A DNA stretch of 63,821 bases, the filler included, from Acidimicrobiia bacterium (GTDB taxonomy: Bacteria > Actinomycetota > Acidimicrobiia > Spongiisociales > JAENVV01): assembly GCA_041577335.1 (NCBI GenBank). It is 3 parts of 3 records of this genome, joined end to end, with 100 filler letters (N's around TTAATTAATTAA, not from the genome) between each part and the next. Parts side by side here need not be neighbours in the genome. Positions count along the whole stretch, not along the records: positions 1 to 26,429 come from JBFGJH010000045.1; 2 more parts are not named here. One strand, written 5' to 3'. Every line of letters begins with the position of its first letter. Within the stretch, counting starts at the first letter, position 1. A model generated the notes under the pieces. It was not told the origin of the DNA and did no database searches. It saw only the letters and a program-made list of their open reading frames with translations. Positions 9,194-53,045 of this stretch are shown one piece after another. The position numbers and the translations under genes are program-made.

Positions 9194-9697
9194 GTGGCTG
9201 AACACGTACCCCTGACTTGGGAAGAGGTCGCACAGACCCATGGGCGCAAGATCTACAACTTCGCTTATCGACTCACCGGCAATCCCGACGACGCCGCCGA
9301 CCTCGCCCAAGAGGTGCTCTTGCGGGTACGCCGTGGTCTCTCCAGCTACTCCCCGGGGTCGTTCGAAGGCTGGTTGTGGCGTATCACCAGGAACGCCTTC
9401 ATCGACGAAGTTCGCCGCAAGAAACGCCGTCCAACCACGGCGCTGCCCGAGGACATCGATCGCACCTCATTGGCCAGCACTCCAGCACCCGATGACGTGC
9501 TCGCCTCTATCAGGCTCGGCGACGACGTGCAGAAGGCACTCATGGCGTTGCCGTTCGACTTCCGAGAATCCGTGGTCATGTGCGATTTGATCGGCCTTTC
9601 GTACGATGAGATCGCGCTGGCGACCGAGGTGCCGGTGGGAACGGTGCGCTCTCGCATCCATCGAGGACGCAGGCTGCTGCGTGAGGCGCTGCAATGA
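9194..9697 (+). CDS. sigE: ECF sigma factor, mycobacterial SigE-like
   Basis: AYRLTGN..AADLAQE, PGSFEGWLWRITRN, GLSYDEIA...VPVGTVRSRIHRGR. Confidence 0.9.
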   Translation: MAEHVPLTWEEVAQTHGRKIYNFAYRLTGNPDDAADLAQEVLLRVRRGLSSYSPGSFEGWLWRITRNAFIDEVRRKKRRPTTALPEDIDRTSLASTPAPDDVLASIRLGDDVQKALMALPFDFRESVVMCDLIGLSYDEIALATEVPVGTVRSRIHRGRRLLREALQ

Positions 9698-10104
9698 CCC
9701 ATCTCGGCGACCTGATCTCTGCCTACCTCGACGGTGAGACCACGAGTGCGGAAACCGCCCGAGTGGTCTCTCACATCGAGTCGTGCGAAAGGTGCAGAGC
9801 CGAGATGGCCGACGTCCATGCTGCTCGAGGCGCACTGCGGTCCCTCCCCGTACTCGAAGTCCCCGACGGTGTATTCGAGAACATCGGCCTGGCCCCCAGC
9901 GTGGTTCCGCTGCGTCGGCGGCCGGTGACCTGGGTTGCCGCCGCGGCTGCGGCGGTGTTGATCGTCGTTGCGTCCGCGTCTCTGGCTACGCCAGACGCGA
10001 TCGGAGTCACCCTGTACGACGTGTCGCTCAACCACGGGCAGCAGCAGCTGACCGATCCCGGGATCGCCCCCAAGCTCGCCATCCTGTCCGGGGCCGAACA
10101 ATGA
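9694..10104 (+). CDS. Zinc-finger (zf-HC2) anti-sigma factor, RseA-like
   Basis: LISAYLDGE...HIESCERC (HxxxCxxC), then a TM helix; ATGA overlap with sigE. Confidence 0.9.
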   Translation: MTHLGDLISAYLDGETTSAETARVVSHIESCERCRAEMADVHAARGALRSLPVLEVPDGVFENIGLAPSVVPLRRRPVTWVAAAAAAVLIVVASASLATPDAIGVTLYDVSLNHGQQQLTDPGIAPKLAILSGAEQ

Positions 10105-10985
10105 GGCGGATTGCGGTCGTTGGCATCACGGCGATGGTCGTCATTGCCGGTTTCGCCGCCGGAGCGTCGGCGCAGGTTGCCGAACTGGTAGAGCAGGGCG
10201 AGCAAGCTCGCTACTCGGGCGAACAGACCGTGGTCTGCAACACACCCGACGGCCGGACATCGGAAGTTTTCGAAGTTGCCCAGGCTGAGGGCGTGGCGGT
10301 GTCCCGGGACTCTGCAGGGGTCATGCGTGCCGCGGCCGTCACACCCACCGGCGAGTGGAATCTCGCCGGCAAGTATGAGGTGCGAGACCGAGGCGACGGA
10401 ACCTTTCTCCAACGGCCCGTCGCCGTCGTGGAGATCATCGAAGGCGAAATCCTGAGACTGCGTCTCCGTTTCGATCTCGAGACCGGCGTGTTGCTTGCGT
10501 CGGACGTGTACAACGGCGACGGCACACCGTATTGCTCGACCCGGTTTGTTGTCTTCGTGCCCGGTGACGCCGGTCTCGCCGCGAACGTGGAGCCCGAGCT
10601 CCTCGACCTTTCCTCGGTTGACTCGTTCAATGAGTCGGCTCTACCGGAGGAGATTGCCGGGTTCGACCGGATCTCCGTCGGCGAGGGCCCACGGGAGGAG
10701 ATTGTGTCGGCCTATTACGGCGACGGCATCTTCTCGTTCACCGTTCTCAATGCTGAGCGAGTCATCGACATCCCCGAACTGGCCGAAGCTCCCACTGCGG
10801 AGATCGAAGGTCACTCCTATCGACGGCAGTTCACACTCAGCACTGTCGTTGTTGAGTGGTCGTCCGATGAAGGGGGATACGTGCTGATAGGAAATATCCC
10901 GCTCGACGTGCAGTCACAGGTGCTGAGAGCGCTTCCCACACCCTCGCAGGGGTTCTTCGACCGCCTGTGGAGCCTGTTCAACTAG
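10101..10985 (+). CDS. Exported MucB/RseB-like anti-sigma accessory protein
   Basis: Signal peptide, YSGEQTV, FDLETGVLLA, YGDGIFSFTV pattern; ATGA overlap with the anti-sigma gene. Confidence 0.65.
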   Translation: MRRIAVVGITAMVVIAGFAAGASAQVAELVEQGEQARYSGEQTVVCNTPDGRTSEVFEVAQAEGVAVSRDSAGVMRAAAVTPTGEWNLAGKYEVRDRGDGTFLQRPVAVVEIIEGEILRLRLRFDLETGVLLASDVYNGDGTPYCSTRFVVFVPGDAGLAANVEPELLDLSSVDSFNESALPEEIAGFDRISVGEGPREEIVSAYYGDGIFSFTVLNAERVIDIPELAEAPTAEIEGHSYRRQFTLSTVVVEWSSDEGGYVLIGNIPLDVQSQVLRALPTPSQGFFDRLWSLFN

Positions 10986-21280: not shown

Positions 21281-22339
21281 ATGGAACCAGACCCCGGCGC
21301 GCTCGTCCTGGACTACGACGTCCCCCACCAACCTGCTGCGACTCCCATCGCCAAATGGCCGTTCTGGGTGGCCGGGCTCATGGTGGCTCTGGCCGGCGCG
21401 GTGGCCGTTTCCATGATGGTCACCGTGCCGTACATCGCCTTCAGCCCCGGTCCGGTGATCGAGATCGACGAGATGATGGTGCTCGGAGAGCCCGATCCAC
21501 TCACTGGTGAGTTCTACATGCTCACCGTTGCCACGACGCCCCCCCTGACGGCCCTGGAGTTCTTGGTTGCCAACTTCGACAACGAGTCGGACATCTATGC
21601 CCGCGAGGCGATTCGCCCGTCAGGTATCTCAGACGAGGAGTACGCGCAACGCAACCGTGATCTCATGGACGAGTCCAAATCGACTGCGGTGCTCGTCGCG
21701 TTGGAGCGCAGCGGCTACGAAGTCACCTACACAGGCGAGGGTGTTCTGGTGGCAGGATTCTCCGAAGGGTCCCCCGTCGAAGGCGTGCTCATGGCCGACG
21801 ACATCATCACGGCCGTTGACGGCGCCCCCGTCGATACCGCCGGCGACTTCATCTCGCTGGTCTCCGAACGGGAAGTCGGCGACGAGGTGGATCTGACCAT
21901 CGACCGGGACGGCACCGTTCTCACCAAGACGGTGACCCTGATCCCGCATGTCGACGATGACGGCCGGGCCATGGTCGGGTTTCTCGCCACCACCTACAAC
22001 TTCGACTTCGTCACTCCGATCGAGATCGACATCGACGACGACAACATCGGCGGCCCGTCCGCCGGCCTGATGTACACGTTGACCCTGATGGACCTGCTCC
22101 AACCCGACGACCTCACCTCTGGCCGGGTCATTGCCGGCACGGGCACCATTCGCCCCGATGGCTCGGTCGGCCCCATCGGGGGTGTTCGACAGAAGGTCTA
22201 TGCCGCCGAAGAAGTCGGCGCCGACTACATGTTCGTGCCCGCCGACAACTGGGAAGAGGCTCTCACCGCCGATCATTCCATCCAGCTCATCCGCGTCGCC
22301 ACCGTCGACGAAGCACTGGAATTCCTCCAGTCCCTATAG
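21281..22339 (+). CDS. PDZ-domain Lon-like (S16) protease, YlbL family
   Basis: N-terminal TM, PDZ region, IGGPSAGLM (Ser) and GPIGGVRQK (Lys) dyad. Confidence 0.9.
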   Translation: MEPDPGALVLDYDVPHQPAATPIAKWPFWVAGLMVALAGAVAVSMMVTVPYIAFSPGPVIEIDEMMVLGEPDPLTGEFYMLTVATTPPLTALEFLVANFDNESDIYAREAIRPSGISDEEYAQRNRDLMDESKSTAVLVALERSGYEVTYTGEGVLVAGFSEGSPVEGVLMADDIITAVDGAPVDTAGDFISLVSEREVGDEVDLTIDRDGTVLTKTVTLIPHVDDDGRAMVGFLATTYNFDFVTPIEIDIDDDNIGGPSAGLMYTLTLMDLLQPDDLTSGRVIAGTGTIRPDGSVGPIGGVRQKVYAAEEVGADYMFVPADNWEEALTADHSIQLIRVATVDEALEFLQSL

Positions 22340-22418: not shown

Positions 22419-22572
22419 CGTGCCTCCTGAATGAGGGGGTTGGCGGAGCGCCCCCCTCGAGCTCCCCCAATGGAAGTGCCACAGTGTTTCTCCCTCCAGC
22501 GAGCGGAGCGAGTGTTGGGGGGAGTGGCGGCGCCGGCAGGCGCCGGCAAGGGGGGCCGAGCCGGAGGCGAGG
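22419..22572. repeat. Composite REP-like intergenic element (copy B)
   Basis: 22419-22470 matches 25507-25580; 22486-22572 resembles 8564-8656; CTCCCCCAA can pair with TTGGGGGGAG. Confidence 0.7.
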
Positions 22573-22693
22573 TCTCGTGCTCAGCAGGTAGAAGCAAGGA
22601 GCCACTGGTGTTCGGTCGCTGATTTGCTTCGTTCGGTTGGCCGGGGCCGGCCGGTCGACCCAATGGGAACGGTGGTCGGTTATCGTTTCGGTC

Positions 22694-24397
22694 ATGTCAG
22701 ATGCTCCCTCCTCCGGTCGGCCGTTCAAGGCCGCATTTCGGGGATACGACCAGGACGAGGTCGATCAATATCTCACGCAATTGGAGCTGAAGCTCGAAAA
22801 GACACGCGAGCATCAAGAGGCACTTGCGGCCCGTCTCGAGCAGCTCGGCGAGAAGAAACATGACTTCGACGCCCTCGGGGCCGAGCTCAGCCAGATGCTC
22901 AACCTCGCTCAAGAAGCCGCAGACGGCATGCGCAAGCGGGCCACCGACGAAGTGGCACTGTGGCGAGCCGAGGCGAGAGCCGAGGTCGACCACGCGGTGA
23001 GGTCATCGACCGACGACTCCGAGGCCATGAGAGCCGACGCCTGGCGAGCCGCTGAACAGCTTCTCAATCAGGCGCAATCCGAGGCCGAACGGATCCTTGC
23101 CGAAGCCCAGCGAGAGGCGCTGGCGCTCACCGGTCAGGCCGAACGCGACGCCCACCGACTCGGTTCCAACGCCAAGCGCGATGCCGAGGAGCAGATGAAG
23201 CTCGCCAAGGTCGAGGCTGAGCGAATCCTGACCGAAGCACGAGCCGAACGCGACCAGATCGTCGATTTGGCCCGCAAAGCCGCCGACCAGGCTCAGGAAC
23301 GAGCGAGGGCCTTGGAGATAAGGCGGAACGACCTGCTCACGGAACTCGAATCGGTGCGCTCGACCGTGTCGCGTCTCGAGTCCGATCTCGAAGAAAAGCG
23401 GCAAGCCCTCTCTGCGGTGCCCGCTGCTGACCGGCTCGACGACGATCTCGAGCCGGCCGAAGCAGGCGAACCAGCCGAAGCAGCTGACCAACTCGTAGAG
23501 GTCGAAGCATCCCCGCCGACAGAACAGGGACGGACCAAATGGGCGAAAGACTCAATCCGCATCATTCCTGCGGCCACGGCGGACGAAGACAAGCCCGTGG
23601 ACGCAACCGAAATGGCCGACGAGGCCCGCCTGCGCAATTCTGAGCCGGCGGCCGAAGCAGAAGGAGCGGCCTCTGAGGAAGAAGACGGATTGACGGACCT
23701 TTTCGCCGAGCTCACCAGCGGTGACGCCGAGGATGGTGAGATCGTTGTGGAACATGAGGAATTCGACGGGTTTGCGCTGCGAGATCAGCTGCTGTTGCCG
23801 ATCACCAACCGCATACTCCGTTCTGTGAAACGGCAATTGACCGATTCTCAGAACGTTGCGCTCGAAGCGCTTGGCGAGGCCGGCGAGGACTGGACACCTG
23901 ACGTAACCGACGTCGAAAAGGCACTACACGGCGACTTTGTGATTCTTGCTCAGGAGTCGTTCGCAGCGGGATACGCAGGTGTGGAGACCATGACCGGAGA
24001 GTCTCTGGGCCGGCCCAAACCGGAAGCGAGCGAGGTGACGGAGCAGACCGGAGCATTCACCGCTGCTCTGGAGGAATCGCTCGTGGCGGCCATAGCCGAT
24101 GCTGATTCCGAGCGAGCTTCCTCATCGGCGGTGTCACGTACGTATCGAGTATGGCGAACCGACGAAGCTGAACGCAGAATCCGCAGCTATGCCCGGCTCG
24201 GCTACCACAAGGGAGTCGCTCGTGGCCTCTATGCGCTCGGCATGACCACCATGGAATGGGTGCTCGGCTCTCCCACCTGTGAGATCTGTGCCGCGGAAGC
24301 CGAGAAGTCGCCGATGGAGATAGCCACCCACCTCCGCAAAGACATTCCTGTCCCTCCGATCCACCCAGACTGTTCCTGTACCTTGGTCCCTGCGTAA
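22694..24397 (+). CDS. DivIVA-domain coiled-coil protein with C-terminal MuF-like domain
   Basis: FKAAFRGYDQDEVDQYL DivIVA motif, long Ala/Glu/Arg coiled coil, C-terminal W...TCEIC...PPIHPDCSC. Confidence 0.85.
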   Translation: MSDAPSSGRPFKAAFRGYDQDEVDQYLTQLELKLEKTREHQEALAARLEQLGEKKHDFDALGAELSQMLNLAQEAADGMRKRATDEVALWRAEARAEVDHAVRSSTDDSEAMRADAWRAAEQLLNQAQSEAERILAEAQREALALTGQAERDAHRLGSNAKRDAEEQMKLAKVEAERILTEARAERDQIVDLARKAADQAQERARALEIRRNDLLTELESVRSTVSRLESDLEEKRQALSAVPAADRLDDDLEPAEAGEPAEAADQLVEVEASPPTEQGRTKWAKDSIRIIPAATADEDKPVDATEMADEARLRNSEPAAEAEGAASEEEDGLTDLFAELTSGDAEDGEIVVEHEEFDGFALRDQLLLPITNRILRSVKRQLTDSQNVALEALGEAGEDWTPDVTDVEKALHGDFVILAQESFAAGYAGVETMTGESLGRPKPEASEVTEQTGAFTAALEESLVAAIADADSERASSSAVSRTYRVWRTDEAERRIRSYARLGYHKGVARGLYALGMTTMEWVLGSPTCEICAAEAEKSPMEIATHLRKDIPVPPIHPDCSCTLVPA

Positions 24398-24414
24398 TCG
24401 GCCCGATCAGGTGG

Positions 24415-24443
24415 GACTCGACCCGATCAGGATCGGTCGAGTC
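24415..24443. terminator. Hairpin between convergent genes
   Basis: GACTCGACC(C)GAT-CAGG-ATCGGTCGAGTC, 17 nt after the DivIVA stop. Confidence 0.5.
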
Positions 24444-24563
24444 GATCGAGCGCCCCTTCGGCGGCCCTCAAAGCCCCGCGACAGCAGCGACCAACTCAAA
24501 CTCCCCCAAATCGAGGCCGTGCGTCGGGCGCCCGTCGGATGCTCGTGGTTGGAGCAGGTTTGG

Positions 24564-25361
24564 CTAGCGGAGCGTCAGGTAGTTGGCTTGTTCGCAGACC
24601 TGGTGCATGCGCCGGGTTTCGTCGAGGTGTTCGCTGCCAATGGCAACAATCCGGTCGACCGCGCCCAGCGCAAGGGCGGCGCGGCCGTCCTCGTGGTGGT
24701 GCAGGGTCGTGAAGATATCCACGATTCCCTGGCGCAGCGTCGAATCGAGACGTTTCGAGACGGCGATCGGTTGGATAGGTGAGGGCCCCAGCGAGTCGAT
24801 GATTCGCACCGACCTTCCGAATGCATGGTTGCGCCGCAGTTCCACGGACAGGCAATGCGAATCGATCGCCGACGCGTCCACTTGTCCGTTGGCGACCATG
24901 CTCATCGACACTTCGTGGTATCCCGATTCGATCACCTCCTTGAAGAACCCCTTGGTTTCGCCGATCGAGACCAGGTGGTAGCGGGTGATTCCGTACCCGG
25001 ACTGGGAGAGCGGTTCGTTGTAGGCCCACGCACTTCCCCGCAGGTCGAGGAACGACCGATAGGGGCTGTTGCGGTGGACGATGACATCCGAGAAGTAGAT
25101 AGGAAGGCGGCCATATCGGGCATCCGCCAAGACTGGCGCTGCCACCGGCACGGCGGGCGATATCCCCTCGCGTTCGAACATGACGAAGGCGAGGCTGCAC
25201 ACGAAGCACACGTCGTTGACGTCGTTGACGCAGTTTTCGTAGTCCGTCTCGCCCACCAACTCCGTCGTGAGCCCGAGGCGTGTGCCTACCGCCACGGCAA
25301 GCGCTTCGTAGAAAGGCATCAGATTCGGGGCGAGAAAGGTGCCGAACCGCAGATCAGCCAT
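24564..25361 (-). CDS. PhnD/phosphonate-binding-protein-like protein lacking a signal peptide
   Basis: DVCFVCSL, YFSDVIVH, DLRGSAWAYNEPLSQSGY, SGYHEVS..MVANGQVDASAIDS; start MADLRFGTF. Confidence 0.8.
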   Translation of the reverse strand: MADLRFGTFLAPNLMPFYEALAVAVGTRLGLTTELVGETDYENCVNDVNDVCFVCSLAFVMFEREGISPAVPVAAPVLADARYGRLPIYFSDVIVHRNSPYRSFLDLRGSAWAYNEPLSQSGYGITRYHLVSIGETKGFFKEVIESGYHEVSMSMVANGQVDASAIDSHCLSVELRRNHAFGRSVRIIDSLGPSPIQPIAVSKRLDSTLRQGIVDIFTTLHHHEDGRAALALGAVDRIVAIGSEHLDETRRMHQVCEQANYLTLR

Positions 25362-25506
25362 ACGATATCGATGTACAGCATACGCTCTCGATCGGATTGA
25401 ATCCGATCGAGTTTCAGGACGCGCTGCTTTGCGGTGCCGCGCCGAAGTCGCCGCGGAATCGCCTCCCCCATGCGATTCCGTCGGCAGGTTGCGACACGAA
25501 CTGTCC

Positions 25507-25580
25507 GCACCTCCTGCATGAGGAGGCGAGAGCGCCAAGCGTTCTCGGCTGGCGGTAGCCGCCCCCTCGAGCTCCCCCAA
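25507..25580. repeat. REP-like intergenic element (copy C)
   Basis: CCTCCTG(C/A)ATGAGG...TGGCGG..GCCCCCTCGAGCTCCCCCAA shared with 22419-22470, with an extra inserted hairpin GAGAGCGCCAAGCGTTCTC. Confidence 0.7.
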
Positions 25581-25725
25581 GCTGCGGTCGGTCGCCCGAG
25601 CTGCCAAACCGAAGCTCCATTCGAGTGCCTCCGCCGCACCGACAAGGCGGTGCGGCCCTGGCCCCAGGTGCCAGGCAGCTCCGACGTGGCAGCACAGCCT
25701 GGCGGTGCCCATAGAATGGGCCGCC

Positions 25726-26429
25726 ATGTTGTCTAACGAGCCGGTCTCACCGAAAGCGCCAACTGCCCCGCGTCGCCGCTGGGTGCGCATCGCCATCATC
25801 CTGGTCGGCCTCTACCTTCTGCTCCAAGCGGCTTCTACATTGTGGACCGAGCTCCTTTGGTACCGCTCGGTGAATCTTTCCTCGGTGTGGTCCGAGCTCC
25901 TGTTGTTGCGCATCGGGCTGATGGCCGGCGTGGTGGCAGTCAGCTTCACGTTCGTATATTTCAACTTGGTCTGGGTCGATCGATCGGCGGTGCCGGTGTT
26001 CGCGGCCGACGAGGGCGAAGAAGTGGTCGCCCGGTTCCAGGACTGGGTAGGCCCGCGACGCACCCGAGTCAGAATCGTCATCAGCGCGTTCCTGGCGCTG
26101 ATGACTGGACTGGCCGCGGGATCGTGGACGTACGACGTGGTCTTGTTCCTCAATCAGCAGACGTTCGATCTGGTCGATCCGATCTTCAACAACGATGTCT
26201 CCTTCTACGTGTTCCGGCTTCCGCTCCTCAGAGCGATTGCCACGTATGCGTTCCAGCTGGTCGCCTTGACAACGGTGGTCGTGACATTTCTGCACTTCAT
26301 GAATGGCAGCATCCGGTTGCTCGCCAACCGGGCCCCAGAGGTTTCTCGGGGAGCTCGGATTCAGCTGTCTGTGCTGGTCGCCGGCTTGTTTCTGGTCAAG
26401 GCGGCCAGCTACCGCCTCGACACCTTCGA
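25726..26429 (+). CDS. UPF0182 family membrane protein, 3' truncated by the gap
   Basis: WTELLWYRSV, VDPIFNNDVSFYVFRLP, KAASYRLD. Confidence 0.9.
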
Positions 26430-26529
26430 NNNNNNNNNNNNNNNNNNNNNNNNNNNNNNNNNNNNNNNNNNNNTTAATTAATTAANNNNNNNNNNNNNNN
26501 NNNNNNNNNNNNNNNNNNNNNNNNNNNNN
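26430..26529. other. Artificial contig linker
   Basis: N44-TTAATTAATTAA-N44; stop codons in all six frames; genes truncated on both sides. Confidence 0.98.
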
Positions 26530-52945: not shown

Positions 52946-53045
52946 NNNNNNNNNNNNNNNNNNNNNNNNNNNNNNNNNNNNNNNNNNNNTTAATTAATTA
53001 ANNNNNNNNNNNNNNNNNNNNNNNNNNNNNNNNNNNNNNNNNNNN
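52946..53045. other. Artificial contig linker
   Basis: N44-TTAATTAATTAA-N44. Confidence 0.98.

Follow-up and report, generated by a model that had tools for sequence, protein, structure and literature searches.

A DivIVA-family protein of Acidimicrobiia with a distant MuF-like domain at its C-terminus

The N-terminal domains of DivIVA proteins bind curved membrane at cell poles and septa, and in the DivIVA of Bacillus subtilis the F/R loop of this domain acts in membrane binding. A quite different protein family, MuF, is represented by gp7 of phage SPP1; according to Jamet et al. 2017 (PMC5576092) MuF occurs in about 35% of tailed phages, and apart from portal binding its function is still called unknown. 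According to an excerpt of PMC6316719, strong attachment to the SPP1 portal is what brings gp7 into the procapsid, and MuF toxins are thought to use the same portal route (excerpts of PMC6316719 and PMC5576092). Here we describe a gene of an Acidimicrobiia bacterium (GenBank assembly GCA_041577335.1), located at positions 22694-24397 of a 63,821-nucleotide stretch of DNA (hereafter the window), which encodes a DivIVA N-terminal domain and a MuF-like C-terminal domain in one protein. A preliminary description of this locus had taken the fusion for a strong candidate for an undescribed system, and this was borne out, since no description of a DivIVA-MuF fusion was found in the full-text literature, most subscription journals and preprint supplements lying outside the coverage. 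These searches showed no earlier branch of the MuF superfamily that is cellular and lies outside prophages, and the protein is at the same time a DivIVA-family scaffold with a new effector end.

The window is composed of at least three joined contigs, with runs of N at positions 26430-26529 and 52946-53045 across which gene order is meaningless. Positions 1-26429 correspond to one contig, C45, of an assembly of 128 contigs (3.38 Mb, 90.75% complete). The fusion gene and its parts, as delimited by domain searches and by AlphaFold2 (AF2) models with their predicted local distance difference test (pLDDT) values, are as follows:

22694-24397, + strand: DivIVA-MuF-like fusion gene, one uninterrupted frame of 567 amino acids plus stop
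22721-23032, + strand: DivIVA N-terminal domain, residues 10-113 (Pfam PF05103, E 1.3e-17)
22856-23410, + strand: predicted long single helix, residues 55-239 (AF2 full-length model, pLDDT mostly >90)
23411-23767, + strand: acidic linker, predicted to be disordered, residues 240-358 (low pLDDT, isoelectric point (pI) 4.05)
23537-23572, + strand: linker motif W..IRIIPA (consensus W..[IV]R[IV][IV]P), residues 282-293, conserved across the order
23597-23635, + strand: linker motif VDA..MA.E.R (consensus VDA..MA.EVRR), residues 302-314, predicted short helix
23690-23716, + strand: linker motif L..LFA.L (consensus D.L..LFA.LR), residues 333-341, predicted short helix
23768-24394, + strand: MuF-like domain, residues 359-567, four long helices and a small hairpin (AF2, Foldseek, phrog_2662, HHalign)
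24278-24379, + strand: Cys/His knuckle, C529, C532, H557, C560 and C562 (alignments A3 and A7)

The start codon ATG at 22694 agrees with the N-termini of the homologues in the alignment. The translation contains FRGYDQDEVDQYL at residues 15-27, ESFAAGY at 421-427, WRTDEAERRIRSYARLGYHKG at 487-507, MEWVLGSPTCEIC at 520-532 and PPIHPDCSCTLVPA at 554-567, so that all the motifs quoted in the preliminary description, including its DivIVA motif, lie in a single frame. The protein scores 64.4 bits with PF05103 (cut-off 28) and 25.2 bits with the NCBIfam DivIVA-domain model TIGR03544 (cut-off 22), and thus belongs to the DivIVA family; the FRGYD loop occupies residues 15-19. The NCBIfam models of Wag31, Scy and FliH-like proteins gave weak matches in the coiled-coil part.

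The AF2 model of the full-length protein, built with 34 aligned homologues (mean pLDDT 80.2), consists of helices at residues 20-51 and 55-239, low-confidence stretches between residues 239 and 355 that are likely disordered apart from short helices at 304-315 and 332-341, and a compact helical domain at 359-567, as had been proposed for the C-terminal region. The proposed coiled coil is present as well, but it comprises about 220 helical residues (20-239) instead of about 230; by the model, the helix 55-239 is presumably the coiled-coil oligomerisation region. The linker deserves its description as acidic, with 37 D+E against 8 K+R. Its three motifs are all conserved across the order, with W, L, F, L and R columns at least 90% conserved in alignment A1, and the rest of the linker is variable; the last two motifs, modelled as short helices, may be binding motifs. 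We considered whether D.L..LFA.LR is a copy of the FtsZ C-terminal peptide; the FtsZ of this genome ends in DDELEIPSFVQG, and the likeness was so vague that this candidate was dropped. In both A3 and A7 the knuckle residues C529 and C560 never vary, whereas the conservation of C532 is 90% or higher; the knuckle is presumably a zinc site. A further Pfam family, PF28068.1, is precomputed on many of the listed family members and on none of the nine listed DivIVA-less proteins with a whole C-terminal domain; therefore, it probably covers part of the N-terminal half and not the MuF-like domain. We regard the identity and architecture of the fusion, a DivIVA domain followed by a helix, an acidic tether and a MuF-like domain of phage derivation, as almost certain.

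Compared with DivIVA, Wag31 and GpsB (PF05103), the fusion is alike in its N-terminal domain, F-R-G-Y-D loop and coiled coil. However, its 567 residues exceed twice the length of the canonical DivIVA of the same genome (241 residues), and beyond the coiled coil come an acidic tether and a MuF-like domain, the latter not known from any characterised DivIVA.

A fused frame of this kind might be an artefact, namely a frameshift, a read-through or a chimeric assembly joining two genes. A word-indexed search with the C-terminal region gave 271 homologues at E<=1e-3. Among 120 listed homologues, 110 carry the Pfam DivIVA domain in the same protein; nine listed ones that bear no Pfam label at all are short (321-515 residues). 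Where homologues are named, they are called "DivIVA domain-containing protein" or "hypothetical protein", and the organisms given are metagenome-assembled genomes of Acidimicrobiia or Actinomycetota. An exhaustive HMMER search of 1.84 billion representatives gave 419 clusters at E<=1e-3 (185 at E<=1e-10), and in nearly all of 150 listed clusters the MuF-like domain is C-terminal, most of the proteins being 500-870 residues long. When 13 relatives were translated from their loci, DivIVA was above the cut-off in 11, just below it in one (26.3 bits) and undetected in one. In addition, contigs from four public sequencing runs of three studies, covering 22639-23725, 23180-24500, 22889-23900 and 23080-23970, cross the linker without a joint. 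Against four relatives, every one of the four segments had a ratio of nonsynonymous to synonymous substitution rates (dN/dS) of about 0.07-0.41, with about 0.15-0.3 as a summary figure; in a pair from the same genus the ratio of the MuF-like part was 0.15. However, dS is saturated, so that these values show only that dN is far below dS. The fusion is thus neither unique to this assembly nor a chimera, and the artefact explanation is refuted, its probability being close to nil.

The preliminary description had read the C-terminal end as the signature of phage Mu F/SPP1 gp7 minor head proteins. The homology stood, by fold and by profiles, but membership in the curated models did not. Three results count against a MuF assignment: no Pfam model, PF04233 included, matches the C-terminal piece of the window protein (207 residues) even at E<=10, so that the HMMER check proposed earlier came out negative; no NCBIfam model matches this end either, and TIGR01641, the NCBIfam model of the SPP1 gp7 family, is not listed for the protein at E<=1; and HHalign against a 19-sequence SPP1 gp7 alignment gave an E of 0.028 with a score of 21.7 versus 17.3 for the reversed control, which is not significant. 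Nor was HHalign against the single sequences of SPP1 gp7 and Mu gp30 significant (E 0.25 and 0.11, respectively). PF04233 was reached by three of 19 close homologues (best E 0.012) and by one of 13 distant full-length members (E 0.066), where distant members are those from other families of the class Acidimicrobiia and from outside the class. The minor head and head morphogenesis families of PHROGs matched the window protein alone at E of about 0.001-0.01, and tblastn of its domain against phage records gave 199 weak matches (best E 0.03); the features under 30 listed rows were minor head, capsid maturation protease, head morphogenesis, scaffold, MuF-like fusion and hypothetical proteins. The same search with a distant member gave no match at E<=1e-3, and short knuckle matches alone at E<=10; a scan of IMG/VR with the family alignment gave no relative.

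More decisive were the predicted structure and the profiles of distant members. The AF2 model of the domain, built with 19 homologues, has a pLDDT of 93.8 and a predicted template modelling score of 0.89. Foldseek of this model against BFVD, a database of predicted viral structures, gave 21 matches at E<=1e-3 (best 2.7e-5, probability 1.00). The top 50 matches include 30 with a name; of these, 26 are proteins of the minor capsid, capsid or head morphogenesis, portal or MuF-like fusion type, and the other four are two uncharacterised proteins, gp15 of Bacillus phage G and a Zeta-toxin-domain protein. The modelling check proposed earlier was thus answered by matches that are almost exclusively phage minor-head and portal-MuF proteins. 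The best overlay was an 817-residue portal protein (template modelling score 0.76, root-mean-square deviation 3.6), and the domain shares the fold of the MuF superfamily in this comparison of predicted with predicted models. No solved MuF-like structure was found by Foldseek in the PDB (best E 0.21); a wide VIA structure search of the domain returned generic helical bundles (top Z 9.1), and the sole matches of the family profile among PDB sequences were designed repeat proteins. The nearest named clusters in the ESM Atlas were 52-88% viral, with PF04233 in 28% of one of them; at scores of 0.89-0.90 these are leads only.

As for the profiles, positions from about 490 to 709 of the 717 of phrog_2662 ("portal protein") were matched by all 11 distant family domains (E 3.5e-14 to 2.9e-4), the matches spanning the whole domain, and phrog_2662 was also matched by three of 17 close members. 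One distant member matched phrog_2468, "head morphogenesis" (E 1.3e-7). SPP1 gp7 itself matches positions 591-712 of phrog_2662 (E 2e-16). The "putative portal protein" of Brevundimonas phage vB_BpoS-Strzyga (775 residues) is a member of phrog_2662 (E 1.2e-105) and carries Pfam Phage_portal at residues 110-448 and Phage_Mu_F at 662-768 (E 8.9e-6, 26.9 bits). The family profile A3 (29 sequences) aligned to residues 660-772 of this protein with an HHalign probability of 96.5% (E 8.5e-10, 108 columns), which brings the knuckle into line with the C..C / H..CRC end of the phage protein. A relaxed alignment of the gp7 family likewise puts G.G, R-T-[DE], W, C..C and C.C in register. Because the fold, the phrog profiles and the HHalign bridge to Strzyga and gp7 agree, we concluded that the C-terminal domain is, as judged from profiles and models, genuinely related to the MuF superfamily, as a remote member beyond the limits of the curated Pfam and NCBIfam models, and that it is closest to the MuF module that ends portal-MuF fusion proteins.

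Set beside phage MuF/SPP1 gp7 (PF04233, TIGR01641), the cellular domain has the same predicted fold, the same motif order (G.G ... [RK]-T-[DEQ] ... W ... C..C ... PP.H..C.C) and profile links through phrog_2662, phrog_2468 and phrog_115. In contrast, it falls below the Pfam and NCBIfam thresholds, it is acidic instead of basic, and it follows a cellular scaffold in a chromosomal core gene that has neither a portal nor a terminase gene beside it. The portal-MuF fusions (phrog_2662, Strzyga) are the closest sequence relatives found, the domain of about 205 residues corresponding to the last 220 or so positions of the profile, and a portal fusion also gave the best structural overlay; the N-terminal partner is DivIVA with a coiled coil here and a portal domain there. 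The MuF polymorphic toxins, as set out in part of PMC5576092, likewise carry the MuF module at one end of a multidomain protein whose other end varies, but there MuF is N-terminal, the toxin is C-terminal and the genes lie in prophages, whereas the order is reversed here and the gene lies outside any prophage. Searches of the fusion protein with Pfam, NCBIfam and PADLOC revealed no toxin domain, and it is therefore not a MuF polymorphic toxin.

The survey of architectures was made on 301 species-representative genomes of Acidimicrobiia (class sample) and 401 genomes of the phylum; among those counted are four unpublished genomes, G212, G254 and G275 in the class sample and G438 in the phylum sample, the removal of which alters no conclusion. 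A profile of close homologues matched 195 of the 301 class genomes and a broader one 223; with the latter, 216 of the 238 genomes of high quality had a match, and so did 126 of the 135 genera. Most genomes without a match belong either to a streamlined genus with genomes of about 1.0-1.1 Mb, in which 0 of 65 matched, or to a family in which 2 of 7 did. In the phylum sample 41 of the 401 genomes matched, 16 of them outside the class (where about 370 genomes were covered) and in six families. The fusion is thus nearly universal in Acidimicrobiia and present in a few other Actinomycetota lineages. The similarity declines steadily with taxonomic distance and almost every genome has a single copy, which fits vertical inheritance after one old capture; a capture from phage to host is the economical direction, since MuF is very widespread in phages. 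One of the commonest virion modules of phages has been fixed in the core genome of a whole class, joined to the best-known scaffold of poles and septa. This makes a clear case of host takeover of a virion part, offers a handle on what the MuF fold binds, and points to a lineage-specific spatial organisation in Acidimicrobiia, which are abundant, hardly cultured and essentially unstudied in their cell biology.

Some relatives depart from the common architecture. At two loci of the same order, L043 9403-11031 (-) and L044 9816-11747 (-), the protein stops soon after the WR[ST]DEAERR helix and is without the Cys/His knuckle, and genome G033 has two knuckle-less copies on different contigs. C-terminally short matches occur in at least 19 genomes among the matches listed for the close-homologue profile. 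These lineages indicate that the helical part can function without the knuckle. Outside the class, locus L055 has two adjoining MuF-like genes (9232-10641, - strand, and about 10669-10887) with no detectable DivIVA and no UPF0182 downstream; this pair is a DivIVA-less offshoot of the family.

The flanks of the fusion gene had been called housekeeping in type (PDZ-Lon protease, UPF0182), and Pfam agreed, with one gene intervening before UPF0182. Upstream lie a branched-chain amino-acid ATP-binding cassette transporter and then a protease gene; the nearest genes are:

21281-22339, + strand: protease with PDZ and Lon_C (S16) domains (Pfam PDZ_2 4e-11, Lon_C 1.2e-8)
24564-25799, - strand: gene for a PhnD-like periplasmic binding protein, separating the fusion gene from UPF0182 (Pfam Phosphonate-bd 3.6e-28)
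25705-26429, + strand: UPF0182, N-terminal transmembrane part, first 241 codons (Pfam 1.4e-39, profile positions 4-218 of 770); contig C45 ends at 26429

This order was compared with 20 related loci, 16 across the class and four outside it. In 19 of them, among which are three of the four outside the class, the next gene downstream is UPF0182, on the same strand; PDZ-Lon immediately precedes the fusion gene in 15, and 19 loci contain it at some position. The synteny of PDZ-Lon, fusion gene and UPF0182 therefore extends to nearly all of these loci. In most loci -4 to about 90 nt separate the stop codon of the fusion gene from the start of UPF0182, although larger gaps, of about 200 and 680 nt, also occur; this spacing fits co-transcription. 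Since tblastn found no match of the PhnD-like gene in any of the 20 loci, this gene is a recent local insertion in the present genome. The fusion gene is thus wedged into a pair, PDZ-Lon and UPF0182, that is conserved across Actinobacteria and newly tied to membrane-protein quality control.

The claim that no prophage is present also held. The neighbours are conserved cellular genes without portal or terminase among them, so that the context is not that of a phage packaging module, and neither Phage_portal (PF04860) nor SPP1_portal (PF05133) had a match in the whole 90.75%-complete assembly.

The genome has its canonical DivIVA elsewhere. On contig C6, a 241-residue DivIVA belongs to the cluster YlmE-like (Ala_racemase_N-fold) - SepF - YggT - DivIVA, which adjoins an isoleucyl-tRNA-ligase-like gene (assigned from its Anticodon_1 and DUF5915 domains). 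The fusion gene, in contrast, stands beside PDZ-Lon and UPF0182 and not in this division cluster, and its protein scores 42.9 bits with the Wag31 equivalog NF050102, against a cut-off of 260. It is therefore an extra paralogue and not the division DivIVA: a chromosomal, vertically inherited DivIVA paralogue in which the C-terminal tetramerisation end is replaced by a helix, a tether and a MuF-derived domain.

What might this protein do? We consider that the best overall explanation, with a probability of roughly 45%, is a membrane-anchored adaptor for the neighbouring envelope quality-control genes. The DivIVA domain would hold the protein at poles or septa by binding negatively curved membrane there, the long helix would oligomerise it, and the acidic flexible tether of about 120 residues would present the MuF-like domain as a docking module, in parallel to phage gp7, which docks on an oligomeric ring, the portal, and so targets itself or a fused cargo. 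The likeliest partner would be the envelope and membrane-protein quality control encoded next to it, UPF0182 (linked to FtsH and YccA) and/or PDZ-Lon, and this machinery would thereby be placed or regulated at sites of growth and division. The parts of this explanation differ in strength: a scaffold-adaptor mode of action is reasonably probable, and the choice of UPF0182 and/or PDZ-Lon as the partner is tentative, the odds being against it. As reported in part of a preprint (bioRxiv 10.1101/2025.11.14.688347), UPF0182 has seven transmembrane helices and a periplasmic dome and is predicted to form a tetramer, and its knock-down phenotypes correlate with those of ftsH and yccA in three actinobacteria. 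A table of PMC8093794 lists Rv3193c among the transposon-sequencing hits of the rv0954 cell-division study, beside pbpA, rodA and lamA.

A narrower form of the adaptor explanation is that the MuF-like domain keeps the ring docking of gp7, exerted now on a cellular membrane oligomer for which the UPF0182 assembly would be the best candidate, so that at poles and septa the DivIVA-MuF protein would gate the quality control of membrane proteins or set its position. We think this form quite unlikely. If true, it would be the first cellular function of the MuF fold and would provide a tractable non-viral model, of value because the role of MuF in phages has been unclear for decades. Complex prediction of the MuF-like region (252 residues) with the transmembrane region of a relative's UPF0182 (315 residues) gave a score of 0.00 against a mark of 0.32, in a run without controls that speaks neither for nor against contact. 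Several considerations weigh against the adaptor explanation as a whole. If the large domain of UPF0182 is periplasmic, as the preprint states, only a short N-tail and short loops would face the cytoplasm, leaving little surface on which to dock. That two genes are neighbours is by itself a poor indication that their products touch. PDZ-Lon adjoins UPF0182 directly, with no gene between, in two inspected genomes (about 1.0-1.1 Mb) of the genus that has no fusion, which indicates that the pair works without the fusion gene. Finally, the knuckle is dispensable in the lineages that have lost it.

Some of the same facts would suit a protein of the same architecture whose MuF-like domain serves something other than its neighbours, the gene order being historical; examples would be self-assembly of the scaffold, a client in division or polar growth, or a sensor based on zinc or thiols. 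The persistence of the PDZ-Lon and UPF0182 pair where the fusion gene is missing favours it, as do the three conserved linker motifs, which could bind other clients, and the variation or loss of the Cys/His ligands in some lineages. Against this, the linkage to UPF0182 in all but one of the related loci, three of the four outside the class included, and an intergenic gap often near zero exceed what would be expected from history alone. An unrelated partner is therefore, in our judgement, an unlikely explanation, but one to be taken seriously.

Two roles suggested in the preliminary description fared worse. The first is a DNA tether, in which the MuF-like domain would bind DNA and DivIVA would fix the chromosome or a plasmid at the pole, resembling the polar fixing of DNA by RacA and DivIVA. 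SPP1 gp7 is called a DNA-binding protein in the title of Stiege et al. 2003, a title that speaks for such a role, and the first helix and the WRTDEAERR helix of the domain are locally basic. However, the domain is acidic in all 29 family members (pI 4.5-6.3, whereas an SPP1 gp7-like protein has 9.46), and such a charge speaks against unspecific binding of DNA; the domain follows a very acidic tether, and no par, smc or origin-type neighbours were seen at the window locus. A DNA tether is thus improbable. Still more improbable is an anti-phage decoy, in which the domain would mimic phage MuF, bind the portals of infecting phages at the membrane and block assembly or DNA entry. Portal binding is the only established activity of MuF, as far as an excerpt of PMC6316719 goes, no cognate portal gene was found in the assembly, and, to judge from the title of a reference, some actinophages depend on or target DivIVA/Wag31. 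But throughout the class this is a core gene, present once per genome, kept in synteny and passed on vertically instead of lying in a variable island, which speaks against a decoy used in defence; purifying selection acts on it, and PADLOC-DB gave no match at E<=0.01 for the fusion protein, a distant homologue or the PDZ-Lon neighbour. The adaptor explanation is accordingly the one that we prefer.

A few minor observations were made in the window and elsewhere in the assembly. Scans for promoters and terminators gave nothing above shuffled sequences. The 355-nt gap upstream of the fusion gene contains a dispersed G+C-rich intergenic repeat at 22440-22570, for which, as for the 5' intergenic region, Rfam gave no match; 12 further copies with 71-97% identity are present in the assembly, one of them at 25550-25580, and the contig depth spikes at the repeat in one run. 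The genome also has a third DivIVA-like gene on contig C64 (L006 1150-1800, - strand), located between an MgtE-like gene and greA; its product of 216 residues has two matches to the first 30 or so positions of the DivIVA profile.

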